The translations under genes and the position numbers were made by a program. Of a stretch of DNA of 64,000 nt, positions 13,090-61,102 are shown piece by piece. The stretch lies in assembly GCA_037441385.1 (NCBI GenBank), contig JBBISH010000016.1, forward strand, positions 1-64,000, written 5' to 3'. The notes below the pieces were generated by a model. The model ran no database searches and was not told where the DNA came from. It worked only from the letters and a program-made list of their open reading frames with translations. Position 1 is the stretch's first letter, and each line of letters starts with the position of its first letter. This DNA is from Myxococcales bacterium (GTDB taxonomy: Bacteria > Myxococcota_A > UBA9042).

Positions 13090-13148
13090 GGGAACCTCGC
13101 GCCCATGGCCGGGCGGGACGGTAGCATAGCGATGCAAAGTGAATTCTT

Positions 13149-19074: not shown

Positions 19075-19099
19075 GCGCGCGGACTGCTATGCTCGCCGC

Positions 19100-23342: not shown

Positions 23343-23372
23343 TCCATTGCCCCGTCCAAAGTAGCCAACCTC

Positions 23373-24452: not shown

Positions 24453-24469
24453 GTTTGCACATTTGCCCT

Positions 24470-24510
24470 AAAAAACGTCGAAGCCGACGACCGCAAGGCC
24501 GCCGGCTTCT
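24470..24510 (-). terminator. Intrinsic terminator downstream of the OmpA gene
   Basis: Minus strand GAAGCCGGCGGCC-TTGC-GGTCGTCGGCTTC followed by GACGTTTTTT, between convergent genes. Confidence 0.7.
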
Positions 24511-24532
24511 TCGTCTTGGGTCTGGGGAGCGC

Positions 24533-25714: not shown

Positions 25715-25771
25715 TGCGTCCTCGTTGGCGGTCGCGCTTGTTGGCGGTCGCGGTTTGCGCGTGGGAGCGAC

Positions 25772-26212
25772 CTACTTGTCCTCGGCTGGCACGCTGGGGG
25801 CCTTCTCGCGCTCCCCATTCTTGGGCGCGAATTTCTCGCGGCGGCTGGCTTGGTCGCGGCCCTGGCGGGCCATTTCCAGGGCCTTCTCGCTTGCCCCCTG
25901 GCTGGTCCGCGCGTACTCGGTGGCCACTTGGAATTGGCCCATGCCGTTGCACTCTTTGGCTTTGGCCAGGTACGACTCGGCGCGGGTGTAGTAGTACACC
26001 GCGTATTCGGGCGCCTTTTGCGCTTCGGTCTCGCGCAGGTCGCGGGTCGCGTCCGAAATGGCCGACGATGCCGAGACGGACCCACAGCCCACGGCGACCA
26101 AAGCCAACGCGACGGAGCCCAGGGCTGCGATCCACCGGCCGCGCCGGTGGCTGCGACCGGTGCCGCATCGAGTGTCGCGGCAATTTGCGCAAGCTTCTGT
26201 ATTTGCGAGCAT
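25772..26212 (-). CDS. DUF4398-like lipoprotein
   Basis: Lipobox VAVGC, APEYAVYYYTRAESYLAKAKE; directly upstream of the OmpA gene. Start uncertain. Confidence 0.8.
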   Translation of the reverse strand: MLANTEACANCRDTRCGTGRSHRRGRWIAALGSVALALVAVGCGSVSASSAISDATRDLRETEAQKAPEYAVYYYTRAESYLAKAKECNGMGQFQVATEYARTSQGASEKALEMARQGRDQASRREKFAPKNGEREKAPSVPAEDK

Positions 26213-26291
26213 CTCTGGCCTCTCCCACCTGCGGGCGCTCACCGGGTCCACGCCTGCCAAGCCCAAGCTGTGCTCCGGGCCGGTGCCGTCT

Positions 26292-26320
26292 ACTGTCGCG
26301 CTCGCCCGCAACCCTGTCAA
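26292..26320 (-). promoter_or_regulatory. sigma70-type promoter candidate for the DUF4398-OmpA pair
   Basis: Minus strand TTGACA-17 bp-GACAGT. Confidence 0.45.
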
Positions 26321-26474
26321 GCCGCAGACCCTGCGCAGCGAGGCACACTTGTGCCGGGGCCGGGTTCGCGCCAAGATGCACCGTCGCGGCGCGGTGGGGC
26401 GCGGCGGCTCCTTGGGGTTCTGCACGGGATCCCCTGTCGGTTGCAGCGGCATGAAGACAGCGAATTGGAAAGCA

Positions 26475-27098
26475 ATGTCAGGCGCGTACCCAGGTTTTGG
26501 CCTGGTGCGACGCGTGGCTGTTGTGCTGGTGTGCGCGGCTGCGTTTGGGGCGGGCTGTAGCCGTGTCTCGGCCGACCGCGCCCAAAACCAGGTGCTGGCC
26601 CAAGCCGCCAAGGCCATCGAGCGCTATTCCACTGCGTCCGAAGACGCCAACACGGCCCACAAGAAGGTCATGGAGGCCTTTGCCAAGGCCAACGCCGCCA
26701 CGACGCTGGCCGAGTACCAAGAACGGCTGCGCAACGACGTCATTCCTGCCCTGAACACGTTTGTGGGCGTGCTGCGGGCCATGCCCACCGAGACGCCCGA
26801 GCTCAAGGCCATCCACGCCCGGTTGGTCGAGGCCTACAACAAGGCCAGCAACCGCATCCGCGACTTTGAGCAAAAGCTGCAGGATCCTCGGGGACTTTCG
26901 GAGTTCGACGCCATTCGCAAGGAATTGCAGGACGCGGTGGCTGCCTACAAGAACGAGCTGAACCAGTACTACGCCAAGAACAAGCGGCAGTTGCGGTTCG
27001 AGGGCCGGGTCGGCGGCGTGCCGGAGTCGGCCGCCCCCGCGGCGCCCGCGACCCCAGCCAGCGCCGCCGCTTCGGCAAGCGCAACGTCCGCGCCGTAA
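26475..27098 (+). CDS. Helical-bundle lipoprotein, unknown function
   Basis: Lipobox FGAGC, amphipathic helices, Ala/Pro tail. Start is 26451 or 26475. Confidence 0.75.
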   Translation: MSGAYPGFGLVRRVAVVLVCAAAFGAGCSRVSADRAQNQVLAQAAKAIERYSTASEDANTAHKKVMEAFAKANAATTLAEYQERLRNDVIPALNTFVGVLRAMPTETPELKAIHARLVEAYNKASNRIRDFEQKLQDPRGLSEFDAIRKELQDAVAAYKNELNQYYAKNKRQLRFEGRVGGVPESAAPAAPATPASAAASASATSAP

Positions 27099-27126
27099 CG
27101 GCCCAAGGTGCCATGGCGAGCCGGGG

Positions 27127-28074
27127 TTGGTGTCGCCGCCGCCAAAGAGGAACGAAGCCGCCTTGTCTGCACCTTCCCGTAGCTTGTCTCCTTTGGTGGC
27201 CTTGCGCGCCATGCGGCCGCACCAATGGGTCAAGAATGCCTTTGTGCTGATCCCCGCGGTTTTCGCCGGGCCCGATCTGCTCGCCACGGGGCAGGTGACG
27301 TCGCTGCTCGCGGTGCAGGTGGTGCTGGCCGCCATCGCCTTCAGCCTGGCTTCCAGCGCGACCTACTTACTGAACGATATTCATGATGTCGAGGCGGATC
27401 GCCGCCACCCGGTCAAGTGCAAACGTCCCATCGCGTCCGGCGAATTGCCGGTACGCACGGCTTGGGTGCTGTTCGGCGTCTTGCTCGCCACCGCGCTGGG
27501 AATGGGGACGTGGGTCCGGCCGAGCGTCGCCGGCATCGTCTTGGGCTATTTTGCCGTGAACGTGGCCTATTCCAAGGGCTTGAAGCGGCTGGCATATGTG
27601 GACGCCGCGATCATCGCGCTGGGCTTCTTGCTGCGCCTGTTGGCCGGCGGCGAGGCGGCGCAAGTGCACCTATCGCGTTGGCTGGTCTCGTGCACCGTGC
27701 TGCTGGCCTTGTTCTTGGCGCTGGGCAAGCGGAAACACGAGGTGCTGACCACTTCGGTGGGACACCGCAAGTCGCTCGAGCGCTATCGGGTCGAGCACCT
27801 CAACTTTGCGCTGGGCGTGTTGGCTGCGGCTACCGCTGGCGCCTACTTGGTGTACACATTGGACCCGGCCACCCGCGCGCGCTTCCACACCGAAAGTCTG
27901 CCGCTGACCACGCCGTTCGGCGTGTTTGGCCTGTTGCGCTTCTACCAGCTGAGCGACGACGCCAAGGTCGCCACCAGCCCCACGGACCGGATGCTCCGCG
28001 ACCCCGCCTTTGTGATCAACGCCGTGGTGGGGGCCGCCGTGATTGTGGCGATGATCTACCGAGTCGCGGCGTGA
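27127..28074 (+). CDS. UbiA-family prenyltransferase, decaprenyl-phosphate phosphoribosyltransferase-like subfamily
   Basis: MRPHQWVKN, YLLNDIHDVEADRRHPVKCKRPIASG, LFLALGKRKHE. Start uncertain. Confidence 0.88.
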   Translation: MVSPPPKRNEAALSAPSRSLSPLVALRAMRPHQWVKNAFVLIPAVFAGPDLLATGQVTSLLAVQVVLAAIAFSLASSATYLLNDIHDVEADRRHPVKCKRPIASGELPVRTAWVLFGVLLATALGMGTWVRPSVAGIVLGYFAVNVAYSKGLKRLAYVDAAIIALGFLLRLLAGGEAAQVHLSRWLVSCTVLLALFLALGKRKHEVLTTSVGHRKSLERYRVEHLNFALGVLAAATAGAYLVYTLDPATRARFHTESLPLTTPFGVFGLLRFYQLSDDAKVATSPTDRMLRDPAFVINAVVGAAVIVAMIYRVAA

Positions 28075-28517
28075 CGCGGGCGCGCCTGACCGCAGCGCTG
28101 CTGGCGCTGACCGTGGGCTGTGGGGCGGCCGATGGCCAGCGCAGTCCGCCCAATCCGCAAGCGGACCGGCTGCTGGCTGATCTGCGCGCCGCCAGCGACA
28201 AGCCGATCGTCGCCCGCTGGAACCCCGCCCCTTGCGCCTGCCCGCCTTTTGAGGTGCTGGTCGGCGCGACCTGGGTGCGCGCCGAGTTTCTGGCTACCGA
28301 TGTCGAAGCGCTCCTGGGCTGGCAAGCGTTCTTGGCGGCCACGCCAACCGAGGCGCTGCCGGTGCCCCTGCAGATCGAGGGGCGGATCGAGCGGCAGATC
28401 CTGCGCACCAGCACCGGCGCCTACGCGGTCCGCGTCGAGGTGTCCTCTGTGCTCGGGCCCAAGCCCGCCGAGGCGGTCCCAGCCAGCGCGGTCAACCCTG
28501 CGCCCGCCCCACCTTGA
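28071..28517 (+). CDS. Small lipoprotein, unknown function
   Basis: GTG overlaps the upstream TGA; MTRARLTAALLALTVGC lipobox; CACP motif. Confidence 0.7.
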   Translation: MTRARLTAALLALTVGCGAADGQRSPPNPQADRLLADLRAASDKPIVARWNPAPCACPPFEVLVGATWVRAEFLATDVEALLGWQAFLAATPTEALPVPLQIEGRIERQILRTSTGAYAVRVEVSSVLGPKPAEAVPASAVNPAPAPP

Positions 28518-28602
28518 GGCGAGCGGGCCGGGGCGGCGCGGTGCCCGGTAAAAAAGTGGACGCGGCCGCCGGTGCGCGCCATGATCCAGGGCGGAGGTTC
28601 GT

Positions 28603-29427
28603 ATGTCTGCACCCTTGGCGTTCTTTTCCCGACTTGCCCCCACTTGGACTCGCGCTGGCGTGCCGCTGGCCGCGCTGGCGCTACTGGGTGGCACAGCGGC
28701 CACTGCCGTAGAGGATGCCAAGCCCAAGGGCGTGGAACTGCAGGTGTTCTTGGGCGACAAGCCGGTGGGCACCGAAGTGTTTCGCAGCAGCAAGGGCAGC
28801 GAGGCGCACTTCTTCTCGACCGAGGCCCAGCTGCAGGACAAGGTCGGCAAGGCGGCTTGGAAGGCTTTCAAGCAACGGGCCGCGTTGCAGACCGGCACGG
28901 ACGGCGTTCTGCAGCAGTACGATCGCTGGATCGACGTCACGGGCGCGACCCAGCAAAGCAAGCTTTTCAATTTCCAGGGCAAGTGGCGGATTTCGGTGGT
29001 CGACGCGGCCTTCGAGGGCAAGAAGCCCAAACCCAAGGTCACCGACGTCAAGGCCGGCAACCCCACGGTGGTCTTTGACGAGCGCCTGCCGTCGCTGGTG
29101 GTCCTGGCTGCCGAGCGCGCCGAAGGCAAGGGCGAGGTCGAGTTCGTGCGCGTCGACGACGCGAGCTCGGGCAAAGTCCACGTAGCCACGGAGCATTTGA
29201 GCGACGCCAAGGGCGGCAAATTCACCCGCACCACGCTCAAGGGCGACAAGGTCGACGCCTGGGTCCTGCGCGACGGCAGCGGCGCCGTGGTCGCGATCAA
29301 GGGCATGGACAATTGGCGCGCGGTCGCCAAGGGCGCCAAGGTACCCGCCGATGGCAGCCTGAAGCCGGCCGAAGCCCCGGCCAAGGCCGCACCGTTGCCC
29401 GCAGCCAGCACGCCCGCCAGTCGTTGA
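28603..29427 (+). CDS. Secreted beta-rich hypothetical protein
   Basis: GGAGG RBS, signal peptide, coding-like codon bias. Confidence 0.75.
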   Translation: MSAPLAFFSRLAPTWTRAGVPLAALALLGGTAATAVEDAKPKGVELQVFLGDKPVGTEVFRSSKGSEAHFFSTEAQLQDKVGKAAWKAFKQRAALQTGTDGVLQQYDRWIDVTGATQQSKLFNFQGKWRISVVDAAFEGKKPKPKVTDVKAGNPTVVFDERLPSLVVLAAERAEGKGEVEFVRVDDASSGKVHVATEHLSDAKGGKFTRTTLKGDKVDAWVLRDGSGAVVAIKGMDNWRAVAKGAKVPADGSLKPAEAPAKAAPLPAASTPASR

Positions 29428-29479
29428 GTCTCGCGCGCATTCTGGGCATACTCTGCGGCCATCGCGCCGGAGTCTTGCC

Positions 29480-29968
29480 ATGCCCACGCTGTCTGCCCCT
29501 CGTTCCCTGTCGCGCACTTGCGCTCTGGTCCTGCTGACTCTTGCTGGCACGGCCTGCGGCGCCAGCGTGCAGTTCGAGCGGAGTGCCGGCGTGCCCAAGT
29601 ACAAGGCCCTGCCGGCCAAGACCGCCGTGCAAGTGGTCGAAAGTGCCGACACGCTGCCGCAACCGGTGGTGGTGGTGGGCAACCTGCACACTGCGTCGCC
29701 CAAAGGCGAGGCCGATCGCGCCGAAGTCACCGCTGGGATGCAAAAAGAGGCCTTCCGCTTTGGCTGTGACGCGGTCGTGGGCCTGAAGCTAGAAGATCAT
29801 GTCGAACGGTCGATGAAGTGGGTCGACAAGCCGGGGCCGGCGGGCAAGTCGGTCCGTCAGCAAGAGCCGGTCGAGAAGCACACCTGGAATTGGAGTGCTC
29901 AGTGTGTCCGGTCGGCCCAGCAACCGGCTACGCTGCCGGCGGCGCCTGGCAAGTCTTCTGGCAAATAG
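29480..29968 (+). CDS. Lipoprotein, unknown function (weakly YbjQ-like, EAFRFGCDAVVGL)
   Basis: GGAG RBS, lipobox LAGTAC. Confidence 0.7.
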   Translation: MPTLSAPRSLSRTCALVLLTLAGTACGASVQFERSAGVPKYKALPAKTAVQVVESADTLPQPVVVVGNLHTASPKGEADRAEVTAGMQKEAFRFGCDAVVGLKLEDHVERSMKWVDKPGPAGKSVRQQEPVEKHTWNWSAQCVRSAQQPATLPAAPGKSSGK

Positions 29969-30005
29969 CCTAGTTTGGAGCGCGGGCTCTCAGCCCAAGG
30001 CGGCA

Positions 30006-30941
30006 CTACAGCGGTGGGCAGAACTTGTCGTCGCAGCCGGGGCCCGTCTTGGTGCTCTCGTCTTTGGCACACACGGCGCAGTAGTAGCCACAGGGCAGCA
30101 CATCGTAGTTGCCGGGCGCGCACGGTGGCTGGAATTCCTTGGGCAACGCCATCGTCGAGCACTGCCGCCACTGATCGGCCGGATCCACATTGGGATTGCC
30201 CGGCACCGACAAGAGGCAGCCCCAGCACACGTCCAAGGGGTACTCCATAGTGCCCGAGACCACGTTGTTGCCGCCGGCGGTCTTGCCCTGCAGCTGGAAC
30301 TTCAGCACCACTCGCTCGATGGTGCGGGCGCGGTCGGTGAACTGAGAGAACCGTTGCTGCCACTCGGCGCCCACCGGCTTGCCCGGCGCCGCAAAATCGG
30401 GCACCAGATTCATCCCGATCAAGGCTTTGCTGTTGGCCGGGATGAAGGCCTGCACGGGCAGGTCCCACTGGGCCAGGTTCTGACCGGTGATGGTCTTGTT
30501 GACCTTGACCGTGCTGCTCGGCAGCGAGAACGGCGACGTGGCCTTGGTCGACGGCGAACGCACCATAGTCACGTTCACGTTGGTGATGTTGACCGAGTTA
30601 GGATCCAGACGCAGCGAACTGGGCCCCGAGCCGTTGATCAGCTGCAGCGACGGCAGGTTGTTCTTGACCGACCCGACGAACTTGAACTCGCGCGACAGCG
30701 CCACATCCATCACGCCGTCCAGATAGAAGTTCTGACCGCCGGTGTACGAGCACTGCAAGATGCCGTTGACCACCGTGGCTTGCGGCACCACGTTGCCTTC
30801 GACCGCCAACGCCGTGTTGTTGTAGGAGTCGCAGCCGGCTGCCAACGCGGCCAGTCCCAGGCCCGCGACACCGATGCAGACACGGCGCACCGGCAGCTGG
30901 CGGGTCGCTCCACTAAGCAATCCGTCGAAATTAATCTGCAT
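30006..30941 (-). CDS. Cys-rich lipoprotein, last gene of the pil-aro run
   Basis: GAGGAGG RBS before ATG 30941, lipobox LAAGC, about nine Cys in the C-terminal ~85 aa; overlaps the aroKB 3' end. Confidence 0.8.
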   Translation of the reverse strand: MQINFDGLLSGATRQLPVRRVCIGVAGLGLAALAAGCDSYNNTALAVEGNVVPQATVVNGILQCSYTGGQNFYLDGVMDVALSREFKFVGSVKNNLPSLQLINGSGPSSLRLDPNSVNITNVNVTMVRSPSTKATSPFSLPSSTVKVNKTITGQNLAQWDLPVQAFIPANSKALIGMNLVPDFAAPGKPVGAEWQQRFSQFTDRARTIERVVLKFQLQGKTAGGNNVVSGTMEYPLDVCWGCLLSVPGNPNVDPADQWRQCSTMALPKEFQPPCAPGNYDVLPCGYYCAVCAKDESTKTGPGCDDKFCPPL

Positions 30942-32631
30942 TCTTGCCTCCTCGCTGCTGTGCAAAACCGCCCGGCAGCGGCGACGACGCGGCCGGCAGG
31001 GAAGTTCGCACATGGGTCGGCGCCGTCGCGCCCAGTTCGGCCAAGCGGGTTTGCCAGAGGCCGGCGTCGACCGCCAGCAACTCAGCATGCCCGACGCCGC
31101 GGAGCAGTGGCAACCACAGCTGGTGCCCGCGGCGTTTCTTGTCAGTAGCGGTCCGCGCCAGCGTAGTGGCGGTCGCCCATCGTTCCCATTGGGTTTCCAA
31201 ACCCAACGCTTCCAGTCCCAGCCGCACCGCTTGCGCTGTGCCGACTTCGGCCAGGCCCAAGCTCTCGGCACACTCGGCCTCGCCCACCAATCCCAGCGCC
31301 ACGGCCTCGCCGTGCAGCACCGCGAACTTGCTCTCGGCTTCGATGGCGTGGCCCAGCGTGTGGCCCAGGTTGAGCAGCGCCCGCGCCGATGCGTGGCCGG
31401 GGCCCTGCCGCTCTTCTGGATCCGCGGCCACCACCGCGGCTTTGTGGCGAATCGCCGCCCGCAGGTGCGGGGTCAGCGCGGCCAGCGAGCGCCGCCGCAA
31501 CGCCGGGGCGTCGGCCAGCAACGCCTGCCAAGCCTGGGTATCAAAGGTAAGGAAAATCTTGGCGATTTCTGCCAGACCGGCCCGGAACTGCCGCGCCGGA
31601 AGGGTCTGCAGGGCCTGCAGCGGCAGCCACACCCACTCGGGGCTGTGGAACGCGCCGACTAGGTTCTTGCCTTCTGGTGTGTCGATCGCGGTCTTGGCGC
31701 CCACCGACGCATCGGCCATCGCCAGCACCGTCGTGGGCAGCAAGGCCGTGCGCATGCCGCGCTGCCAGGTCGCCGCACAAAAGCCGGCCACATCCGTCGT
31801 CGCGCCGCCGCCGATCGCCACCAGCAGATCGCTGCGACCCACGCCGGCGGTGGCTAGCGCCGACCAGATCCGGCTGGCGGTGCGCAGGTCCTTGCACTTC
31901 TCGCCCCCGGCCACTTCGATCACCGCGGTGGCGAGTCCGCGCGCTTGCAGCATCTCGACCAGCGGTTGCGCCCACTTGGCCACGCCCCGATCGATCACCA
32001 GCGCCACCTTGCCGCCCGCCGCCAGCGCCACAATGGCTTCCGCAGCTTGGGCCGGTGCGCCGCCGTGCAGCCACACCGGGTGGGTCTGGGCGGCCACGGT
32101 CGCGTCCAGCACGGGCTCGGCCGGCTCCAGCGCACCCAGCACCGCCGTCACCACCGCGCTCAGCGGTTGCGCCGCGTCGACATGCGCGTGGGCCTTGGCA
32201 TAGATCGGCCGGCGCCGCAGCTCTAGCTCCACGAGCGCTGTGCGTGCGCTTTGCCGCGTGTCGCCCAGCAGCGGCCGGTCGGTGTCGTCGTGCAGGGCGC
32301 GCTCGCTCAGCACGTCGACCGGCGCGTCGAGCCACACCACTTGGGCCTTGTCGCGCATGCGCTCGATGCCATTATGGAAACACGGCGCACCGCCGCCAGC
32401 GGCGATCACGGCGGGCGGACCTGCCAGCACTTGCTCCAGTAGCGCCGCCTCGTGGATGCGAAACACCGTCTCGCCCTCGCGACGTAGCATTTCGGCAGCC
32501 GTGCGGCCACTTTCGCGCTGAAGCACGGCGTCCAGATCCAGGCACGGCATGGCCAGCCGCTCGGCCACACGGGCGGCGACGGCGGTCTTGCCAGCTGCGG
32601 GCATGCCTATGATCACGACGCTTTGCCTCAC
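30931..32631 (-). CDS. aroKB: Fused shikimate kinase / 3-dehydroquinate synthase
   Basis: GMPAAGKT P-loop and RPLL (AroK); GGGATTDVAGF, PTTVLAMADASVGAKT and LNLGHTLGHAIE (AroB). Confidence 0.93.
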   Translation of the reverse strand: MRQSVVIIGMPAAGKTAVAARVAERLAMPCLDLDAVLQRESGRTAAEMLRREGETVFRIHEAALLEQVLAGPPAVIAAGGGAPCFHNGIERMRDKAQVVWLDAPVDVLSERALHDDTDRPLLGDTRQSARTALVELELRRRPIYAKAHAHVDAAQPLSAVVTAVLGALEPAEPVLDATVAAQTHPVWLHGGAPAQAAEAIVALAAGGKVALVIDRGVAKWAQPLVEMLQARGLATAVIEVAGGEKCKDLRTASRIWSALATAGVGRSDLLVAIGGGATTDVAGFCAATWQRGMRTALLPTTVLAMADASVGAKTAIDTPEGKNLVGAFHSPEWVWLPLQALQTLPARQFRAGLAEIAKIFLTFDTQAWQALLADAPALRRRSLAALTPHLRAAIRHKAAVVAADPEERQGPGHASARALLNLGHTLGHAIEAESKFAVLHGEAVALGLVGEAECAESLGLAEVGTAQAVRLGLEALGLETQWERWATATTLARTATDKKRRGHQLWLPLLRGVGHAELLAVDAGLWQTRLAELGATAPTHVRTSLPAASSPLPGGFAQQRGGKNAD

Positions 32632-32652
32632 GCTGATGCCTTGCCTATCCGC

Positions 32653-35600
32653 CTACTTGCCCACCGTCAAAGACGACGAGCGGTTGACGATGCGGGGGGT
32701 GATGAAGATGAGCAGTTCCGTGCGCTTGTCTTCTTCGCGGCGGGTGCGGAACATCGCGCCGATCAGCGGAATGTCGCCAAAGAACGGCACCTTCTTGGTC
32801 GAGAGCGAGGTGTTGCGGGTATAAATGCCGCCGATCACCGTCGTCTCGCCGTCGCCCAGCAAAAGCTCCGTATTGGCTTCGCGTTGCGTGATGGTCGGGT
32901 TGCCGTCTGCCGCGCGGTTGCTGAAGTCCGGCTCGTTCTTGGTCACGTTCACGGCCAGCTTGACGTTGCCGTCCTGGGTGATATGCGGCGTGGCCGAGAG
33001 CTTCAGGTCGGCGCTGAAGAAGCGCGTCTGCACGCCCTGGGCCGACACGACCGAGATCGGGATCGAGATGCCTTGCTTGATGGTGGCCTGGTAGTTGTCC
33101 AGCGTCAGCACCTTGGGACTCGAGACGATCTTGACCACACCTTCTTGCTCGGCCGCGCTCAAGCGCAGGTTCAAGTTGCCCGCGCCGCCCAGCGAACCCA
33201 AGGTCAGACCGATCGCACCACCGGCGCCGGTACCCACGGCGGCCGGCAGGTTCACGGCGTAGTTCGGAATCGCCGTCGCAACGCCGTCTTTGTTGGGCGC
33301 CTGGCTGTCCGCGCCGCCGCCCACGCCCACCACGCTGGGGAAGGGCAGGCCGGTCTCGTTGCCGTAGACCGAGCTCATGGCGTAGTTGCCGCCCCACTGG
33401 ATACCGACTTCCTTGCTGAACGCCGAGCTGGCCTCGACCACTCGCGCTTCGATCAGCACTTGCGGCGTCTGCCCGTCCAGCTTGCGCACCAGCTCTTCTA
33501 CGGCTGCCACGTGGTCTTCGGTGTCGGTGACCACCAGCGAGTTGGTGCGGGCGTCCATCGTCACCGAGCCCTTCTTGCTCTTGATGGCGTTGGCCTGCGG
33601 CACGAGCTGTTCGGCCTGGGCGTAGTTGACCGGAATGATGCGGACGACCAGCTGCTTGACCTCTTCCAGCTTCTGCCGGCGCTCGACTTCGGCGTCGAAC
33701 TCCTTCTTCAGCGAGTCGATGGTCGCGACGCGGATCACGCCGGCCTGGCGCACGTAGTCGTAGCCGCGGGCGCGCAGGATCACGTCCAGCGCCAGGTCCC
33801 ACGGGATGTTCTCCAGGTGGAACGTGACTTTGCCTTGGACTTCCGGCCCGGCGATGATGTTCAGCTTGCCTTCCTTGGCCAGGAACGTCAGCACGTGCTG
33901 GATGTCTGCGTCCTTGATGGTCAAGTTGATGCGCTTGCCGGTGTAGCGGCGGTTCTTGCGCCACGGCGTCTTGATGTCGCCGCCCCCTTCGCCGCCACCG
34001 CTGGGGCCGCCGGCATCTTCGGGCGCCATCACAGGTTGCGGGGCCGCGGCCAACACATCGCCGCCCGACTTCACGGCGCGCGACACGCCCTTGGGGCCGT
34101 CGGCCACTTCTTGGCGCTCGGCGCCTTCCACGCGGTCAAAGTCCCACATCAGCTGGCCGTCACGCAGCGTCACGCGGTCGGCGGCGCGATCGCTCAGATC
34201 GACCACGACGCGCACTTCGTCCTGCACACCCTCGGGCCGGAACACGGTGACGCGCTCGAGCGGACCTTGCAGCGCCTTGGTGTCGTAGGCGCGCTGCAGG
34301 TGCTCGGGCAGGCGCACGCCGCGCACGGCCAAGACGACGCGGTTGGGCTGGCGGCTGACCACTTCGGCGCGCGCCATCTCGGCGCCGCCACCCAGGGCTA
34401 GCTCGACGTGGCCGCGGCGCCGACCTTCGGCCGTGATGCGCACGTCGTCGATGCGGCCCATGTCGTCGCTCTTGGCGGCGCGCTCGTTGCGGGCCTTCTG
34501 CCGCTCTTGCTCGGCTTCGCGGCGCAGCACCTGGGCCTGGGCGGCGGCCTGCTCGGCGGCAGCCTCGGCATTGCGGCGCTGCTCGGCACCCTGGGCCTCG
34601 CGGCGGGCGCGCTGCAACTCGTCGGCCAGGCGCTGCTTCTCGGCGCGCTCGGCCGCCAAACGCTGCTCCTGCTCGGCGATGCGGCGCTCGGCGTCGGCGG
34701 TCTGGCGCGACTCGGCCTCGCGCTCTTGCCGCTCGCGCTCGGCGCGCGCTTCCAGAACGGCGATGCGGGCCTGCTGGCGCTGCACGTAGTCGCCACCGCC
34801 CTTGCTGCCCGCCGCCGCTTCGGCCTGCTTGCGCCGGTTCTGCTCGGCGGCCAACTGCGACTGCAGGTCCTGCTCGCGCTGGACGTACTTCTCTTCCAGG
34901 GCTTTTTCGCGGGCCTCGTGCTCGGCCTGCAGCTGGGCGCGCACGGTGGCCAGCTCTTTCTCTACGCGCTCTTGGGTGCGCTTTTGCTGCTCGGCAGCGG
35001 CCTTTTCGGCCATGGCCACCTTGGCGCGCACGTCGTCGACCGCGCGTTCGGCCGCCACGATGCGAGCGCGCGACGAGGCGCGATCGCTGCGCATGGCTTC
35101 GAGCTCGCCTTCGCGGGCACGCAGGTTGCGCGACAGATCACCCATCTTCTCTTCGGCTTGCCGGCGAGCGGCCTGCTCGCGTTCGGCTTCGCGCCGCGCC
35201 GCCGCCACCGCCTGGTCGCGGTCGTGCAGCGCCTTCTTGGCCATCTCGGTGTCCTTGCTCAGGCGCTGCGTCTCGCGCTGCGCGGCCTGCGCCTCCTGGT
35301 GCCGACCGGCCGCCGCCGCCGCCTGCTCGCGCCGCTTGGACTCGCCCAGGGCGCGGTTCAGGGCGTCGATGCGCTCTTGGGTCTTGGCCTGCAGGTTGCG
35401 CAGCTCGGCCTCGCGCTGGTCCAGCAGACCCTGTACGGCCTCGGCCTGCTTGCTGGCGGCCGCAGCCTGCTGGCTTGCGGCCACGGCCTTGCGCGACTCT
35501 TGGGCCCGCGCCGCTTCCTTTTCGCGAAGTTGCGCCTCGTACGAGTTGCTGAGCGCCTGCTCGCGACGGGCCAGTTCGGCCTTCAACTCCATGCGCACCT

Positions 35601-38600
35601 GGGCCACACGATCTTCGGCATCGCGCTCCATCTTGCGGACTTCGGCGTCGCGGGCGGCCATCGACGCGTCGATCTGCTTGCGCAGCGCGGCCACCTGAGC
35701 CTCGGCCTGAGCGACCGACTTGCCTTGATCCTGGCCACCCACGCGCAACCGCTGCAGCTCCGCCTCGCGCTCGGCCAGGGCCGTCTGCAGGCGCTGTGCC
35801 TCTTGCTCTGCCGCCGCGCGGGCTTCGGCTTGCCGCTTGGACTCGCCGACTGCATTTTGCAGCGCCGTCTCGCGGGCCTTCAGATCCGTTTGCAGGGATC
35901 CCAGCGCCGTCTCTAGGCTCTTGCGCTCTTCCTTCGCCTTGTCCGCCTCGGCCGCGCGGCCCTTGGCCTGGGCGTCCTTTTCGCGCTGGCTGGCTTCGTC
36001 CAGCTGGGCTTCCAGAGCCGCCTGGCGGACTTGCATCTCGTCGTGCAGCCGTTGCAGCTCTTGCTCGCGGTCCTTCAGCAAGCCTTCGACGCGGGAGGCG
36101 CGCTCTTGCGCCTGGCGCGCCTGCTCGCCGCGCTCGCTCTGGACGCGGGCCAACTCGCGGGCGTGGGCCTGCTCCAGCTCTTGCCGCATCGCGCCCAGCC
36201 GGCTGTCGAACTGCTCGGCCATGGCCCTTTCGCGGCGGGCCTGATCGGCAAGCTGACTCTGCAGGCGCTGGCGGGCCTCGGCCACGGCGCGCTGGGCGCT
36301 GGCCATTTCGTCCGCTTTGGCGGACTTGCGGGACTTCAGGCTGCCCAGCTCGCGCTCGCGGTCGGCCAGGGCCTTTTGCAGGCGATCCGCCTCTTGCTCG
36401 GCTTTGTCACGGGCTTCGGCCTGCAGCTTCGCCTCGCGGCGCGCGGCGGCCACCGCGTCGGTCTGGCTCTGCAGATCCTTGCGCAACTGGGCCTGTGCGG
36501 CTTCCAGCCGCTGGCGCTCTTGGCGGGCGCTCTCTTGATCGGCGCGTCGACCCTCGCGCAGCGCCTTGTCTTCGGCCGCCTTGACCTCGCGCATCTGGGC
36601 CGCAAGTTTGTCCTCGCGCTCGCGGACCGACGCCTTCAGGGCGGCCACTTCTCGCTCACGCGCGGCCAACTGCTGTTCCACGCCCTGGGCGCGCTGAGCC
36701 GCAGCCGAGCGCTCGCGTTCCAGATCCGCCACCGCCGCCTTGGCGCGCTGCAGCTCGGCCTGCGACGAGGCCAGCTCGGCGCGGACACCCTGCAACTGCC
36801 CCTGCAGCTTGGCCTGCAGCTCGGCCACCTGGCGATCCTGGTCGGCTTGCTGGGCCGCAAGTTGCTGGCGCGCCTTCTGCACCTCGGCTTGGGCCGCGGC
36901 GATCTGATGGTTCGAAGCAGCTTTGCCCTTGGCCAACTCGGCCAGCGCTGCTTCGCGCTCGGCCAGACTGTTGCGCAGCTTTTGGGCCTCGGCCTCGGCC
37001 TGCTGACGCGCCTTGCCGTTGCGCTCCGCCTCGCCGCGGGCCGTCGCCAACTCGCGATCGCGACTGGCCAGCTCTTTGGCCAGCTCGGCCTGCTTGGCCT
37101 CGATGTCGCCGCGCGCCTTTTGCGCCGCCGCCAGCTCACTCTGCTTGCCGGCCCGCTTGGCTTCATCTTCGCGGGCCTTGGCCTGACTCAGCTCGGCCTT
37201 CAGGTTTGCCTCGCGGTCCTTCAGGGCGGTGCGCAGGTTCTGCAACTCGCGCTCGCGCTGATCCAGCAGGTCTTGCACTTGCGCTGCCCGCTGGGCTGCC
37301 GCGGCGTTCTCGCGCTGCAATTCGGCCTTCTCGGCGCGCAGGTCGGCCAGCTGGGCTTGCGCCGCCGCCAAGTCCTTTTGCACGCCCTGCAGCTGACCCT
37401 GGAGCTTTTGCTGCAGCGCGGCCAATTGCGCATCGCGCTCGGCCTCTTGATCGCGCAGCTTGGCGCGCGCGGCTGCCACTTCCGCTTCGGCCTTGGCGAT
37501 CTGCTGACGGCTCGCAGCGGTGCCCTGACCGAGCGATTGCAGGGCGGCCTCGCGCTCGGCCAGCGCCGACCGGAGCTTCTGATTCTCGACCTCGGCTTGC
37601 TGCCGGGCCTGGGTGGTCTTTTCGACTTCGCGGCGCGCGGCCTTCAACTCCTCGTCGCGGCGGCTCAATTCGCGGGCCGCTTCGGCCTGACGACGCTCGA
37701 CGTCGGCACGGGCCTGGCGGGCGGCCTCGACTTCGGCTTGCTTGCCGGCTCGCTCGGCCGCCTGCTCGCGCTGGCGGGCTTGCGCCAGTTCGGCCTGCAG
37801 ACCCGACTCCTTGTTCTGCAGCGTTGTCCGCAGGTTCTGCAGCTCGCGCTCGCGCTGGGCCAGCAGGTCTTGGACTTGCTCGGCGCGGGCGGCGGCGGCG
37901 GCCTTCTGCCGCTCCAGATCGGCGTTTTGCTTCTTCAGGCCTGCGACTTCGGCTTGGGCCGAGGCCAGATCGCGCTGCACTTCGTCCAGCTGACCCTGCA
38001 ATTTTTGCTGCATGGCCTGCAGTTGCCGGTCGCGCTCGGCGGCCTGCGCCACCAACTGCGCTCGGGCCGCGGCAACCTGGGCCTGCGCCTGCTGGATCTG
38101 CTGGGCGCTCGCGTCCTTGCCCTTGGCCAGGGACTGCAGCGCAGCCTCGCGGTCGGCCAGCACGTTGCGCAGGCGCTCGGCTTCCTGCTCGGCTTGCTTG
38201 CGGGCCTGGGTATTGCGCTCCACGTCTTGACGGGCAGCCGCCAGATCCGCGTCGCGCTTGACCAATTCCTTGCTCAGTTCGGCTTGGCGGGCGCGAATGG
38301 TCTCTTGGGCTTGCTGCGCAGCCGCGACTTCCGCCGCCTTGCCGCCTTGCTTGGCCTGCGCTTCGCGGGCCTTGGCCTCGGCCAATTCCGCGGCCAGCGA
38401 CGACTCGCGATCCTTCAGGGCCAGGCGCAGGTTTTGCAGCTCGCGCTCGCGCTGCCCCAGCAGATCCTGGACGCGACCGGCGCGCTCGGCCGCGGCAGCC
38501 TTCTCGCGCTCAAGGTCGGCCACCTTGGCCTGGCTGGCCGCCAGCTTGCGCTCACTCTCGGCCGCCCGCTCTTCGGCCAGGCGCCACTTGCGCTCGGCCT

Positions 38601-39777
38601 GCTCGCGCTCGTAGTCGGCGCGCTTGGCCTTTTCCAGGGCGTTCTCGGTGTCCATCAAGCGGCTGCGCGCCGCGGCGAGTTCGCCGGCCAGTTGCTCCTG
38701 CTTGCGCTTGGCCTCGGCGTCCGAACCCGCGCGCGCGGCCTGCAGATCGCGGTCTTTTTCGGCCAAGATCTTCTTGAGGTGCTCGACTTCTTCGGCTTGG
38801 GCTTGCCGGCGCGACTCGCTGGCCCGGCGCATCTCGTCGCGGAGCTGCTCGGCCTGTTGCTTGGCCCTTTCCAGCTCGGCTTGCAGCACCGCCAAACGCT
38901 CGTCGCGGGCCGCGCCTTCTTGCTTTTGCAGCGCGGCGATCTGCTGGCGCAGCAGTTCCACGCGCGCTTCCTCGGATTGCCGTTGCGCGACCACAGCTTG
39001 CAGCGAGGCGCGCTCTTTGTTCAGCTCGGCGCGCAAGGCGTCAGCGGCCTTCTGCTCGCTCGCCAGCCGGGCGGCGGCAGCTTGGGCGGCCTGCTCGGCG
39101 TCGGCTAGGCGCTTCTTGAGCGCCTCTTGGGCCTGCAGGTCGGTCTTGGCGCGCGCCAGTTCGTCGGCCAGGCGGTTGCGCTCGTCTTGCGCTTGCTTAC
39201 TGGCCAGCGCGGCTTGCTCTTCGCGGGCGCGGGTGGCGCGCAGTTCGTCGGCCAGCTGCTTTTCGCGCGCGGCGGCGGTCTTGACGGCCTGCTCGTTGGC
39301 CGCCACCTGGGCGCTCTGGGCCTGGTTCAGCTTGCGGTCGCTGCCGTCGACCACGACCACGACGGTATTGCCGTCGGCGCGGACGTGGTACAGGGCATCT
39401 TGTTCAAAGGTCACGACAATTCGACCCACCGGCGCGCCCGACTTCTTGGTCGACTGCACCTCGATGGACCGCACCACGCCGTTGCCCACGTACTTGGGTG
39501 CTTCCAGCCCTTGCACGTCGCTGCCCGCCACGTCGATGAACAGGCGCGAGGGCTTGTCCAGGCGGAAAGTCGTAAACGTAGGCGCCGCCAGACCGCGCAC
39601 CGTGATGACGGTGGTCTGGGTCGCTTCTTGCACGTCGACGGCGGTCAGGGTGTTGCTCGCCTGGCCAGTGCCCTCGGCCGCGAACAAAGGCGTCGCCGGC
39701 AGGGCCATGGTCGTCGACAAGAACAAGCCCATCGACGAGCGCAGCAGCCGCTTGGCCATCGTTTGCTTGGTTCTCAT
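32653..39777 (-). CDS. pilQ: Type IV pilus secretin PilQ, giant form (2374 aa): signal peptide, AMIN, ~1620-aa helical insert, AMIN, N0/N1, secretin
   Basis: GAGGAG RBS. AMIN-like FRLDKPSRLFIDV near the N-terminus and a second AMIN-like segment from ~aa 1775. YTGKRINLTIKDADI...IPWDLALDVIL, PQVLIEARVVE and TELLIFITPRIV. Follows pilMNOP. Confidence 0.95.
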   Translation of the reverse strand: MRTKQTMAKRLLRSSMGLFLSTTMALPATPLFAAEGTGQASNTLTAVDVQEATQTTVITVRGLAAPTFTTFRLDKPSRLFIDVAGSDVQGLEAPKYVGNGVVRSIEVQSTKKSGAPVGRIVVTFEQDALYHVRADGNTVVVVVDGSDRKLNQAQSAQVAANEQAVKTAAAREKQLADELRATRAREEQAALASKQAQDERNRLADELARAKTDLQAQEALKKRLADAEQAAQAAAARLASEQKAADALRAELNKERASLQAVVAQRQSEEARVELLRQQIAALQKQEGAARDERLAVLQAELERAKQQAEQLRDEMRRASESRRQAQAEEVEHLKKILAEKDRDLQAARAGSDAEAKRKQEQLAGELAAARSRLMDTENALEKAKRADYEREQAERKWRLAEERAAESERKLAASQAKVADLEREKAAAAERAGRVQDLLGQRERELQNLRLALKDRESSLAAELAEAKAREAQAKQGGKAAEVAAAQQAQETIRARQAELSKELVKRDADLAAARQDVERNTQARKQAEQEAERLRNVLADREAALQSLAKGKDASAQQIQQAQAQVAAARAQLVAQAAERDRQLQAMQQKLQGQLDEVQRDLASAQAEVAGLKKQNADLERQKAAAAARAEQVQDLLAQRERELQNLRTTLQNKESGLQAELAQARQREQAAERAGKQAEVEAARQARADVERRQAEAARELSRRDEELKAARREVEKTTQARQQAEVENQKLRSALAEREAALQSLGQGTAASRQQIAKAEAEVAAARAKLRDQEAERDAQLAALQQKLQGQLQGVQKDLAAAQAQLADLRAEKAELQRENAAAAQRAAQVQDLLDQRERELQNLRTALKDREANLKAELSQAKAREDEAKRAGKQSELAAAQKARGDIEAKQAELAKELASRDRELATARGEAERNGKARQQAEAEAQKLRNSLAEREAALAELAKGKAASNHQIAAAQAEVQKARQQLAAQQADQDRQVAELQAKLQGQLQGVRAELASSQAELQRAKAAVADLERERSAAAQRAQGVEQQLAAREREVAALKASVREREDKLAAQMREVKAAEDKALREGRRADQESARQERQRLEAAQAQLRKDLQSQTDAVAAARREAKLQAEARDKAEQEADRLQKALADRERELGSLKSRKSAKADEMASAQRAVAEARQRLQSQLADQARRERAMAEQFDSRLGAMRQELEQAHARELARVQSERGEQARQAQERASRVEGLLKDREQELQRLHDEMQVRQAALEAQLDEASQREKDAQAKGRAAEADKAKEERKSLETALGSLQTDLKARETALQNAVGESKRQAEARAAAEQEAQRLQTALAEREAELQRLRVGGQDQGKSVAQAEAQVAALRKQIDASMAARDAEVRKMERDAEDRVAQVRMELKAELARREQALSNSYEAQLREKEAARAQESRKAVAASQQAAAASKQAEAVQGLLDQREAELRNLQAKTQERIDALNRALGESKRREQAAAAAGRHQEAQAAQRETQRLSKDTEMAKKALHDRDQAVAAARREAEREQAARRQAEEKMGDLSRNLRAREGELEAMRSDRASSRARIVAAERAVDDVRAKVAMAEKAAAEQQKRTQERVEKELATVRAQLQAEHEAREKALEEKYVQREQDLQSQLAAEQNRRKQAEAAAGSKGGGDYVQRQQARIAVLEARAERERQEREAESRQTADAERRIAEQEQRLAAERAEKQRLADELQRARREAQGAEQRRNAEAAAEQAAAQAQVLRREAEQERQKARNERAAKSDDMGRIDDVRITAEGRRRGHVELALGGGAEMARAEVVSRQPNRVVLAVRGVRLPEHLQRAYDTKALQGPLERVTVFRPEGVQDEVRVVVDLSDRAADRVTLRDGQLMWDFDRVEGAERQEVADGPKGVSRAVKSGGDVLAAAPQPVMAPEDAGGPSGGGEGGGDIKTPWRKNRRYTGKRINLTIKDADIQHVLTFLAKEGKLNIIAGPEVQGKVTFHLENIPWDLALDVILRARGYDYVRQAGVIRVATIDSLKKEFDAEVERRQKLEEVKQLVVRIIPVNYAQAEQLVPQANAIKSKKGSVTMDARTNSLVVTDTEDHVAAVEELVRKLDGQTPQVLIEARVVEASSAFSKEVGIQWGGNYAMSSVYGNETGLPFPSVVGVGGGADSQAPNKDGVATAIPNYAVNLPAAVGTGAGGAIGLTLGSLGGAGNLNLRLSAAEQEGVVKIVSSPKVLTLDNYQATIKQGISIPISVVSAQGVQTRFFSADLKLSATPHITQDGNVKLAVNVTKNEPDFSNRAADGNPTITQREANTELLLGDGETTVIGGIYTRNTSLSTKKVPFFGDIPLIGAMFRTRREEDKRTELLIFITPRIVNRSSSLTVGK
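34840..38472 (-). repeat. Six diverged ~597-bp (199-aa) coding repeats inside pilQ
   Basis: Anchor V[QE]xxLxxRExE[LV] starts at 38472, 37875, 37278, 36681, 36090 and 35436 (spacings 597, 597, 597, 591, 654 bp). Confidence 0.9.
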
Positions 39778-39837: not shown

Positions 39838-40509
39838 TCAGGGTACGTCGCCAACATCTTCGTCGCCGGGTTCGCCCACCGAGATGGGCGGAGCCAGCGA
39901 CAACGTCACCGGTTTCTCTTTGCCGGGCACAGACAGAATCACCTTGTACTGGGTGATCGCCGTCACGCGCGCCCCGTCGTTGCCCAATGCGTCGCCGCGC
40001 ACCACGTCGCAGCGCCCGCCATCGGGATCCGTAAACACGGCCTTGGGTTGCGCCACGCCGGTCATGATCATGAACAGGACATAGCGCTCGATTGGGCCTT
40101 TGGTCGCACAGGTGTCAGGCAGGTCCGCGGGCCGCTCGTCCATGCCCACGGGCTGGTCCACCACGGCTTGCTCGGGCACCTTGGGCCACTCGACGACCTT
40201 GGTCGTGTTGTCCAGCGACCAATTCACCACGCCGTCGATGGGCTCTTTGGTATACCGGTCGAACAAACCCTTGATGGGCCGCCACTTGGGATTCTCGCCC
40301 AACACTTGATACGCGCCCGAGGCGGCGCTGCTGCTCGAGTTGCTGGACTCCGTGCCGGCCAAGCGGTTCAGGGCCTGGTTCATGTCCTTGGGTGGCGGCT
40401 TCTTGGCCTCGCCGCCGCCGCCACATGCCACCAGCGCCAGCGATGCCAACGCCAGCAGCGCGCGCGCCGCTGGCTTGCCCAGCATGTTCAGGACAGCTGA
40501 CTGCAGCAT
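39838..40509 (-). CDS. pilP: PilP-like lipoprotein
   Basis: Lies between pilO and pilQ with a TGATG overlap. Lipobox LVAC, beta domain IMTGVAQPKAVFTDPDGG...GDALGNDGARVTAI. Confidence 0.85.
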   Translation of the reverse strand: MLQSAVLNMLGKPAARALLALASLALVACGGGGEAKKPPPKDMNQALNRLAGTESSNSSSSAASGAYQVLGENPKWRPIKGLFDRYTKEPIDGVVNWSLDNTTKVVEWPKVPEQAVVDQPVGMDERPADLPDTCATKGPIERYVLFMIMTGVAQPKAVFTDPDGGRCDVVRGDALGNDGARVTAITQYKVILSVPGKEKPVTLSLAPPISVGEPGDEDVGDVP

Positions 40510-41255
40510 CAGGTCCTCTTCTTCTTCGGCTTTTCGCGCCGAGCCATGCCTTCTTTGAGCTCGGCCGGCTTGCCGGTCCACACAAAGGCGTAGGCGGTAA
40601 AGGTCGCCCGGATGGTCGTGCGGTCGCGCGCCATGTCGGCCATCTCGAACTTCTCGTACAAAATGGCCTCGGGGCTCTTGTTCGTTTCTTGCTTTTTGTC
40701 GCCTTCCACGGGCTTGTGCGCCGAGTCGTAGGCCGCGCGCACCAGACCGGATTCTGGCACCACTGTTTCGACGCTGATGCCCCGGATGTTGATCAGGCGT
40801 CGGCTCATGCCCGCGTACAACCGCAAAAATTCGATGAACTGCTGGACGGTGCCTTCCAACGTCACCTTGATCGGGATGGCGTTGTAGAGGTCTTCGCTCT
40901 CTTCCTGCAGGCGGTCGAAGCGCTTGATGGTCAAGTGGATGTCGGTGGCGTCGGCCTGGACCCCGTCGATGAACTTGGGGATCTCGTCGGCCGAGGGGAA
41001 GCCGGCGCGGCGCCGTTTGTCCTCTTCGACCAGATCGTCCTTCTCTTTGCGCAGCTTGTCCGCCGCCTCGCTACTGGCCGAGGACTTCAGCGCATTGACG
41101 TCGCGCTCCAGCTTGGTCAACTGCGCGCGCGCTTGATCGGCTTTGCCCAACTCGGGATCGACCAGGCCAAAGTACAGGCCCAGCGCGACGACCACCAGGA
41201 TGCCTGCCAACACCGCGGCCTTTTGGGCGGGCGGCAACTTCATGAACTGTTCCAT
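40509..41255 (-). CDS. pilO: Type IV pilus alignment protein PilO
   Basis: N-terminal TM, coiled coil, FPSADEIPKF, YNAIPIKVTLEGT, RRLINI; operon position. Confidence 0.88.
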   Translation of the reverse strand: MEQFMKLPPAQKAAVLAGILVVVALGLYFGLVDPELGKADQARAQLTKLERDVNALKSSASSEAADKLRKEKDDLVEEDKRRRAGFPSADEIPKFIDGVQADATDIHLTIKRFDRLQEESEDLYNAIPIKVTLEGTVQQFIEFLRLYAGMSRRLINIRGISVETVVPESGLVRAAYDSAHKPVEGDKKQETNKSPEAILYEKFEMADMARDRTTIRATFTAYAFVWTGKPAELKEGMARREKPKKKRT

Positions 41256-41273: not shown

Positions 41274-42344
41274 TTATTCCGCTGCCGGCATCTTGTCGGC
41301 CGGTGCAGCTGCGGGTGGTGGTTCGGCGGCTTGATGGGCAGCCGGCATGGCCGCTTTGCCGTCGTCGCGCGGCAACTCGTCGGCCTTGGCTTTGCCGGCC
41401 TCGGCCTTGGCGGGCTCGGCTTTGGGCGCTTCGGCCTTGGCGTCCGGCGCAGTCGCCGTGTCGGGCTCGCTGTCTTTGGCCTCGGCCGGCGTGTCCGGCG
41501 CCGACCCGGCATCGATGTCGTCGGCTGCCGTCGCCGCTGCGGGCAGGGGCAGTGCCACCTTGGTGCCGATGACGGCCGCGTCGTCGCCGGTGCTGCCTGC
41601 GTCGGCGGCGCCGCCATCCGTAGAGCCAGCGTCCGCGCCATTGCCCGCAGCAGCGCCTTCTTCGGGTTTGGCCGGATTCAGCGGTTCGATCAGATAGACC
41701 AGCGAAGCCCGGATCGAGAATTCGACATAGGTGATGCCGATCTGGTCGTCGCGCTTCTTTTCTTGGTAAATCAGCTTGGGTTCGCGGAAGTACGGGCTCG
41801 ACTCCAAGCGCCACTGCAGCTCGGCCACGTCTTCGTGCCCCAGCGCGCGGCCCTGGATGGTCACCTCGCCGCCCGACTCGCGGTACGTCGTGACCCACGC
41901 GCGGCGCGCGTCCCAGCCCACGTGCCAACCCGCGGCCTCAAAGGCCACCAGATCGGCCGTGGGCGTCTCGTGTTGCTGGCGCGGCTGCAGGATGAACGAC
42001 AGGTATTGCAGGGCGCCCGCCGGCCCGTCCTTTTCGGCAAACAGCTCGTCGAGCACGGCCTTCTGATCGCGGAGTTTCTTGATCTCTTCGGTGGCCAGCG
42101 CGATCGCCTTCTTGTTCTCTTCCAGCTTGACGAGCTCCAGCTTGCGCCGCTCGAGCTGGGACTTGGCGCGCGTCGCCTCTTCCGCGGCGGTGTTTTGCCA
42201 CAGATAGAAAACGGCCAGTTCCATGACCAAGAACAGCACGAACAGCAAGATGCCGACGTTGGGGATATCGGGCAGGCGCAAGCCCGCGCCGCCCTTGCGA
42301 CTTTTCTTACCGGCGCCGCCACCGATCAGGTTGATGCGAATCAT
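41274..42344 (-). CDS. pilN: Type IV pilus alignment protein PilN with a long acidic low-complexity tail
   Basis: MIRINL PilM-binding motif, TM, coiled coil, VTIQGRA..LESSPYF. True start is ATG 42344. Confidence 0.9.
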   Translation of the reverse strand: MIRINLIGGGAGKKSRKGGAGLRLPDIPNVGILLFVLFLVMELAVFYLWQNTAAEEATRAKSQLERRKLELVKLEENKKAIALATEEIKKLRDQKAVLDELFAEKDGPAGALQYLSFILQPRQQHETPTADLVAFEAAGWHVGWDARRAWVTTYRESGGEVTIQGRALGHEDVAELQWRLESSPYFREPKLIYQEKKRDDQIGITYVEFSIRASLVYLIEPLNPAKPEEGAAAGNGADAGSTDGGAADAGSTGDDAAVIGTKVALPLPAAATAADDIDAGSAPDTPAEAKDSEPDTATAPDAKAEAPKAEPAKAEAGKAKADELPRDDGKAAMPAAHQAAEPPPAAAPADKMPAAE

Positions 42345-55583: not shown

Positions 55584-55630
55584 CAAGCGCCTCGTGCTGG
55601 CGGTGCCTCTGGCCAGCAGCCGAGCCGCGA

Positions 55631-55659
55631 AGTCTAGGCGTGCACGCGCAAATTGGCAA
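55631..55659 (-). promoter_or_regulatory. sigma70-type promoter for the GT-mtnA-M16 run
   Basis: Minus strand TTGCCA-17 bp-TAGACT. Confidence 0.6.
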
Positions 55660-55714
55660 ACGGTCGGCCGATCTTGCTGCTTGCTTGGGCGCCTTGGCCC
55701 GCGGGTACGCCCAC

Positions 55715-58391: not shown

Positions 58392-61102
<2,711 letters not shown>

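Follow-up and report, generated by a model that had tools for sequence, protein, structure and literature searches.

Why would a pilus secretin place 1625 residues between its two AMIN domains? The question is raised by pilQ in the first 64,000 nucleotides of contig JBBISH010000016.1 from a Myxococcales bacterium (assembly GCA_037441385.1), the whole of which stretch is referred to below as the window. An earlier note on this DNA had described one uninterrupted open reading frame (ORF) of 2374 residues in an intact pilMNOPQ operon, encoding an AMIN domain, a long proline-free segment rich in A/E/Q/R/K/L, a second AMIN domain and an N0/N1/secretin module. Our analysis upholds both parts of this description, the former by the absence of stops and N and by the Pfam matches and positions of the neighbouring genes, the latter by Pfam, composition and alignment to 3jc8. 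The long segment, here called the stalk, largely consists of repeats and has counterparts in many other Myxococcota.

Identity of the giant PilQ and of its stalk

The pilQ ORF is free of internal stops and of N, starts with an ATG accompanied by a GAGGAG ribosome-binding site and encodes a protein with a computed mass of 260.7 kDa, about threefold larger than is usual for PilQ. Pfam recognized AMIN (two stretches), STN/N0 (residues 1954-2017), Secretin_N (2045-2106) and Secretin (2208-2364), and the TIGR02515 model of PilQ scored 414.7 bits, above its cut-off of 284.35. The GspD model reached 230.7 bits, under its cut-off of 351.35, and the GspD, SctC and MshL models all remained below cut-off. 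pilQ is the last gene of the operon, in which PilM, PilN and PilO were each matched by Pfam. For PilP, Pfam and NCBIfam gave no family match, and the assignment draws on operon position, a lipobox-like LVAC (recognized by eye) and the presence of homologues at 90 pilQ loci. The genome also encodes a TsaP-like LysM protein, a PilA-like pilin, and PilB-like and PilT-like ATPases, all named by reading translations. Judged by every sequence feature tested, the protein is the type IVa pilus secretin PilQ.

The stalk is 79% A/E/Q/R/K/L, has a hydrophobic period of 3.55-3.56 and lies within a proline-free span between residues 116 and 1811. A heptad pattern, Leu-rich and with R/E at the core-flanking positions, is present all along it. 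Residues 436-1652 consist of six repeats of ~199 residues (U1-U6), overlooked by the earlier note and revealed by autocorrelation (self-identity 29% at lag 199), BLASTN and profiles; BLASTP self-comparison of PilQ revealed no repeats. U1-U3 are 60-62% identical, the remaining repeats 29-37%. Across 123 units, conservation amounts to 99% at G44, 98% at A40, 95% at A52, and 91% at both A33 and E37, and the heptad phase jumps at G44. The repeat-unit profile found no further match in the genome and none in shuffled or reversed controls, and among 45,464 open frames scanned there was no other comparably long proline-free periplasmic stalk. Elsewhere in the genome, just one very long helical stretch without proline occurs (G000:C115:1-3567, + strand); it comprises 773 residues, is acidic, belongs to a gene cut by the contig end and is unrelated to the PilQ repeat.

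Misassembly, a worry raised by the earlier note, is contradicted by several lines of evidence. At the DNA level, the stalk repeats share just 66-67% identity over ~1190 nt, too little for an assembly expansion, and the GC content at third codon positions stays at 0.82-0.90 throughout the stalk. Contigs of sequencing run X1 tile pilQ at even depth with zero differences, X1 being possibly the source data and hence not independent. In run X3, from another study, a single contig covers window positions 31541-38631 at ~90% identity, including the pore module and all six repeats, and the same six repeats are found in the congener L035. Compared with L035, the closest complete congener, the ratio of non-synonymous to synonymous substitution rates is 0.07 for the repeats, 0.08 for the N-terminal stalk and 0.04 for the pore module; for the repeats it is 0.29-0.35 against three more distant congeners. 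By this measure, the helical stalk is under purifying selection.

Distribution of stalked PilQs in Myxococcota

A strong PilQ match was present in 39 of 40 related genomes. The loci compared numbered 155 and yielded 127 distinct PilQs, 101 of them complete and N-free; this is not a random sample, and a PilQ was considered stalked if it contained a proline-free stalk of at least 150 residues. So defined, the stalk is present in 84 of the 101 complete PilQs: the size reported for the protein of the window is real, but the protein is not a one-off. In family f1, all 20 PilQs are stalked (17 with 1338-2029 residues between the AMIN domains and three, from genus g5, with 336-372), as are all 19 from other families of the same class (469-1627 residues) and 13 of 25 hand-picked loci across the phylum. 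Of 37 named records, from Kofleriaceae, Haliangiales, Polyangia and unclassified Myxococcota, 32 are stalked, and the five that lack a stalk are the most distant. Stalk length runs continuously from 240 to 2030 residues across families, and every complete stalked locus examined is one ORF. Recoding, which the '1 TGA' flags of family f7 might have suggested, was rejected: in the two loci checked, the TGA is the terminal stop.

A database search recovered, among 8000 candidates, 324 proteins of 1305-4155 residues that match the C-terminal part of PilQ; among the 120 of these that were listed, both AMIN domains are present in order in 110, and a helical stalk, 560-1913 residues long, in 109. Cultured carriers are Lujinxingia litoralis, L. 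vulgaris, L. sediminis and Persicimonas caeni, with PilQs of 1113-1167 residues and proline-free runs of 365-476 residues. The stalk is absent from the four proteins checked from Sorangium and Polyangium (two each), whose AMIN domains are adjacent, and cultured Haliangium was absent among the best 120 matches of a search from a Kofleriaceae protein.

The 199-residue repeat was detected in 22 of 25 family f1 loci, with four to seven copies in the complete ones, and in four named loci, all inside the same tree clade as family f1; it was absent from every other locus examined. Between the stalk of the window and those of other families, no sequence similarity was detectable (best match 21 bits), the resemblance being one of composition and heptad period. 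In the 84 stalked PilQs, the distal AMIN domain is highly conserved (R78 100%, D82 97%, R119 100%), with the Rxxx- signature of AMIN domains (PMC2572700), which agrees with the original description of a giant PilQ whose helical stalk is tipped by an AMIN domain. Given that the stalk occurs in many families, whereas the repeat is confined to one clade, the distribution indicates that the stalk is an old, widespread design in Myxococcota and that the repeat is the way in which family f1 builds it. In a FastTree tree of 128 core sequences, with Myxococcus xanthus excluded, the stalk needs two changes; the relevant forks have 80-82% support, and the tree comes with long-branch warnings.

Two further observations concern variation among stalks. 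Three loci of genus g5 in family f1 (L066, L067 and L182) have a short, proline-containing stalk with a 12-residue periodicity and without the 199-residue repeat, and the secretin core of this genus sits on a very long branch (0.77); the genus appears to represent stalk loss with accelerated evolution. Furthermore, the net charge per 100 residues reaches +10 to +15 in the strongly basic stalks of L041, L049, L178, L083 and L062 and -10 to -12 in the acidic stalks of L160 and L169, whereas the stalk of the PilQ in the window is near neutral. These charge differences could reflect habitat or polyanion binding.

Predicted fold and possible functions of the stalk

AlphaFold2 modelled U2 alone (123-row alignment) as three helices, residues 2-43, 46-117 and 123-198, with a best predicted local distance difference test score (pLDDT) of 93 and a predicted template modelling score (pTM) of 0.76; the five single-unit models all reached a pLDDT of 88-93. 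For U1-U3 (55 rows, depth 24-55), pLDDT was 86 and pTM 0.51, with helices alternating between 120 and 72 residues. Two turns per repeat recur in all three modelled repeats, one of them at G44, and the conservation of this glycine together with the heptad phase jump provides sequence support for the first turn. In the VIA structure search, unit residues 2-81 and 83-158 overlay known antiparallel hairpins with a root-mean-square deviation (rmsd) of 1.3-1.9, as do residues 193-291 of the triple-repeat model. Foldseek, queried with one or three repeats, gave no match at E<=0.001, and the ESM Atlas gave one weak match (0.81, an AMIN cluster from Myxococcota). The repeats are thus predicted to fold as a zigzag of antiparallel 120- and 72-residue helices connected by hairpin turns, which would account for two-thirds or more of the stalk in family f1. 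The earlier conclusion that the stalk has to double back or extend sideways is supported by these models, which predict the fold-back in detail. The ~240-nm extended arm considered at that stage is not supported as a working shape: assuming collinear packing, each repeat would carry the arm forward by 48 residues (~7 nm) and all six by ~47 nm, so that with straight flanks of 43 and 18 nm the whole arm would measure at most ~110 nm, compared to 244 nm when fully straight.

The inner-membrane partners bear on the direction of the arm. The aligned PilN core comprises 202-228 residues wherever fully aligned, from unstalked loci to those with stalks of ~2000 residues, and the membrane-to-core segment of PilO has a constant length among the rows listed, be the stalk absent or ~2000 residues long. 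As judged from these alignments, the PilN/O/P cores do not scale with stalk length. Because PilN/O/P are not lengthened and the second AMIN domain lies beside N0, the machine would span an ordinary envelope and the arm would have to lie sideways; the unusually wide envelope suggested in the earlier note is not borne out.

The reading we favour, and to which we give an even chance of being correct, is that of a functional type IVa secretin whose subunits carry lateral outriggers pinning the pore to distant peptidoglycan. The proximal AMIN domain and TsaP would hold the pore at the usual distance between membrane and wall, and 12-15 arms would run sideways in the periplasm and bind peptidoglycan tens of nm from the pore. 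Such outriggers would widen the capture radius for septal or polar wall during assembly and spread the retraction load across a wide wall patch. The pore module and the proximal AMIN domain are conventional, and across families the length and helicity of the stalk are kept while its sequence turns over, as expected of a mechanical spacer. AMIN domains are described in PMC10653833 as binding septal and polar peptidoglycan and recruiting PilQ to the poles, and in Pseudomonas aeruginosa in situ, according to PMC11525922, they form spikes that project sideways to the wall and are believed to brace the pore together with TsaP.

Several points weigh against the outriggers. A single AMIN domain is enough for polar assembly in M. 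xanthus (PMC10653833), so that the stalk is not needed for localization as such. Mutual-information covariation (123 units; effective number of sequences, 77) was enriched on the hairpin diagonals just ~1.3-fold at best, a few top covarying pairs falling on the hairpin anti-diagonals; the register-complementarity score was flat, and the pTM of the triple-repeat model is low. Monomer models of coiled coils may fold back when the partner chain is absent, and the arm lengths given above are arithmetic from helix lengths, not taken from coordinates. The localization, expression and force-bearing of the stalk are what we infer from sequence, and the fit of 14 arms (~2.5 MDa) between outer membrane and wall is unexplained.

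Among the alternatives, arms of neighbouring secretins might associate with one another, either in antiparallel BAR-like dimers or in parallel coiled coils, and determine how pili are spaced or clustered at the pole, the distal AMIN domains pinning the lattice to the wall. BAR-type three-helix arrangements can be superposed on each modelled repeat (rmsd 5-6 over ~200 aligned residues, Z ~11), and BAR and I-BAR are dimerizing folds; the integer repeat number of four to seven among complete family members is what a ruler would have, and the heptad pattern throughout the stalk would suit pairing. However, such a score lies within the range of generic helical bundles (Z 10.9-12 in the VIA search), Foldseek returned nothing at its threshold and stalk length is continuous across families. 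We regard such a scaffold as possible, though on balance unlikely. The boldest reading, which we judge rather unlikely, is that the repeats are a new fold-back helical module acting as an extensible spring, each repeat measuring ~7 nm folded and 30 nm straight and hence storing ~23 nm of helix; pores would then be moored by 12-15 shock-absorbing guy ropes, or cross-linked into a periplasmic lattice spaced by repeat number.

Another view of the stalk discards the zigzag: the arms of adjacent subunits could pair in parallel as two-stranded coiled coils, 200-240 nm in length and hinged at the conserved glycines, with the hairpins being single-chain artefacts. The arm would still be a lateral tether, with a much longer reach. 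The Leu-rich heptads with R/E at core-flanking positions, the hydrophobic period of 3.55 and weak SMC-type matches are consistent with such a rod; covariation did not confirm the hairpins, and the stalks outside family f1, devoid of the 199-residue repeat, may well be plain coiled coils. Nevertheless, the near-invariant A..E..A...G.......A turn motif and the G44 phase shift are more readily explained by a tight turn than by an uninterrupted core, and the confident single-unit models, with turns recurring in three repeats, point the same way, which makes the straight rod a decidedly unlikely solution.

Two other explanations are highly improbable in our assessment. The first is a vertical spacer between outer membrane and wall in wide-envelope cells, like Deinococcus SlpA, OmpM or Thermotoga Omp-alpha, which combine by the same three-part logic a wall-binding domain, a helical stalk and an outer-membrane barrel; in SlpA, the stalk length equals the measured membrane-to-wall distance (PMC9388160). 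Here, the second AMIN domain adjoins N0, the PilN/O/P cores are ordinary in stalked and unstalked loci alike, the TsaP-like protein (a 376-residue open frame) has no stalk and the genome scan found no other periplasmic stalk of this kind. The second, equally remote, is that the AMIN-stalk part, though translated as a fusion, is cut off by proteolysis and becomes a periplasmic protein in its own right, or that it is a near-neutral expansion which the periplasm tolerates. Stand-alone AMIN and TolA-like helical proteins do exist in deltaproteobacteria (PMC2572700), the stalk of genus g5 is short and other lineages have none, but the stalked loci are single ORFs, purifying selection on the stalk is strong and 180 kDa extra per subunit is costly. 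An assembly or gene-calling artefact, conceivable for a source assembly fragmented into 221 contigs, is effectively ruled out by the even third-position GC content, the diverged repeats, the X3 contig, L035 and the 324 long database homologues.

Genomic context and comparison with known systems

Features of the pilQ locus (coordinates are positions in the 64,000-nt window; amino acid (aa) numbers are residues of the 2374-aa PilQ)
Feature	Position	Strand	Basis
pilQ, 2374-aa type IVa pilus secretin with helical stalk	32653..39777	-	ORF, Pfam, TIGR02515, 3jc8 alignment
Sec-type signal peptide, aa ~1-33	39679..39777	-	by eye
distal AMIN, aa 42-147	39337..39654	-	aligns to N-terminal AMIN of M. xanthus PilQ
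N-terminal non-repeat stalk, aa 148-435, helical, without proline, conserved in family f1	38473..39336	-	
repeat U1, aa 436-634	37876..38472	-	
repeat U2, aa 635-833	37279..37875	-	modelled singly
repeat U3, aa 834-1032	36682..37278	-	modelled within U1-U3
repeat U4, aa 1033-1229	36091..36681	-	
repeat U5, aa 1230-1447	35437..36090	-	
repeat U6, aa 1448-1652	34822..35436	-	
C-terminal non-repeat stalk, aa 1653-1772	34462..34821	-	
proximal AMIN, aa 1773-1885	34123..34461	-	aligns from residue 337 of M. xanthus PilQ (last AMIN there)
N0, N1/N3 and secretin domains, aa ~1945-2374	32656..33945	-	Pfam, 3jc8 alignment, TIGR02515
pilP, 223 aa, probable lipoprotein	39838..40509	-	position and homologues
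pilO, 248 aa, periplasmic stalk of normal length	40509..41255	-	Pfam
pilN, 356 aa, normal core and low-complexity C-terminal tail	41274..42344	-	Pfam
pilM, 351 aa	42353..43408	-	Pfam
aroK-aroB fusion, downstream of pilQ	30931..32631	-	Pfam

The C-terminal tail of PilN in family f1 is rich in Ala/Asp/Pro/Lys and comprises 90-169 residues, compared to 0-59 in other loci with full-length matches. The fusion gene, which joins aroK and aroB in one 566-residue ORF, begins 21 bp beyond pilQ, and the ORF at 30006-31271 (-) encodes a lipoprotein-like protein with a Cys-rich C-terminus and no Pfam or NCBIfam match. Elsewhere in the window, an RpoD-type sigma factor of 904 residues (58392-61106, +) has an unusually long spacing of ~540 residues between region 1.2 (98-130) and region 2 (670-740), a glutaminyl/glutamyl-tRNA synthetase (10804-13581, -) carries a C-terminal GatB/Yqey domain, a fusion similar to that of the Deinococcus glutaminyl-tRNA synthetase, and a 1422-residue ORF (51471-55739, -) has a PMT_2 glycosyltransferase match at 319-462 as its sole match. 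The genome contains further secretin loci: in G000:C58 (~23000-32500), a 1041-residue open frame lies beside an ATPase and several pilin-type genes, resembling a type II secretion system, and in G000:C22 (~16900-20700), a 513-residue open frame lies near another ATPase.

The best match among solved structures is M. xanthus PilQ (3jc8/3jc9, 901 residues; E 2.9e-150), which shares the pilMNOPQ operon and whose N-terminal AMIN region aligns to residues 28-218, and residues 337-896 to residues 1773-2368, of the present protein. In M. xanthus, however, ~190 residues, a linker and the middle AMIN domain, stand in place of the proline-free stalk with its six repeats; the M. xanthus protein has three AMIN domains on flexible linkers (PMC10653833), whereas the PilQ of the window has two, separated by the stalk, rather than three closely linked ones. 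The PilQs of P. aeruginosa and Neisseria (6ve2, 4av2) likewise contain two AMIN domains, N0, N1 and secretin in the same order, but these whole proteins of 714-761 residues have no space for a long stalk between the AMIN domains. AMIN and TolA-like proteins of deltaproteobacteria (PMC2572700, architecture viii) join an AMIN domain to a charged helical region; they are listed apart from PilQ, and the main text mentions no secretin, second AMIN domain or repeats.

The earlier note knew of no described secretin with this design, and in the literature, largely outside subscription journals, we too found no description of a stalked PilQ; yet the design is not unique but widespread in Myxococcota, including cultured Bradymonadales. 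In the portion of the myxobacterial pilus survey that was available (PMC6060248), PilQ is listed with AMIN/STN/Secretin_N/Secretin only, and the corresponding portion of PMC7460792 places type IV pili at Bradymonas prey contacts and does not discuss PilQ. Given that the cultured predators Lujinxingia and Persicimonas carry stalks, the role of the arm is testable without a new isolate, and the natural series of PilQs with stalks of 0-2000 residues and the rest of the machine unchanged offers a length-titration experiment. These bear on questions partly posed in PMC10653833: how the secretin is held in the envelope against retraction and locates polar peptidoglycan, and what sets a limit to the number and spacing of pores.

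By working analogy, SlpA, OmpM and Omp-alpha (PMC9388160) also present a wall-binding domain on the long helical stalk of an outer-membrane protein. They differ in having SLH domains, a trimeric straight coiled coil, a barrel and a vertical span, whereas the PilQ of the window, in which Pfam found no SLH domain, has AMIN domains, a secretin of the 12-15-mer class and a second wall anchor beside the pore. At the level of the repeat, the three long antiparallel helices of BAR and I-BAR overlay the model (Z ~11, rmsd 5-6), and in spectrin the helix continues from one repeat into the next, as in the predicted PilQ repeat. Unlike either, the PilQ repeat has no significant Foldseek match, shares 5-20% identity and combines 120- and 72-residue helices, lengths that fit neither family. 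The predicted zigzag would thus be a new type of helical repeat and a possible molecular spring or ruler, and, should the spring or lattice reading prove true, it would provide the pilus machine with a load-bearing or force-sensing layer without counterpart in model organisms.

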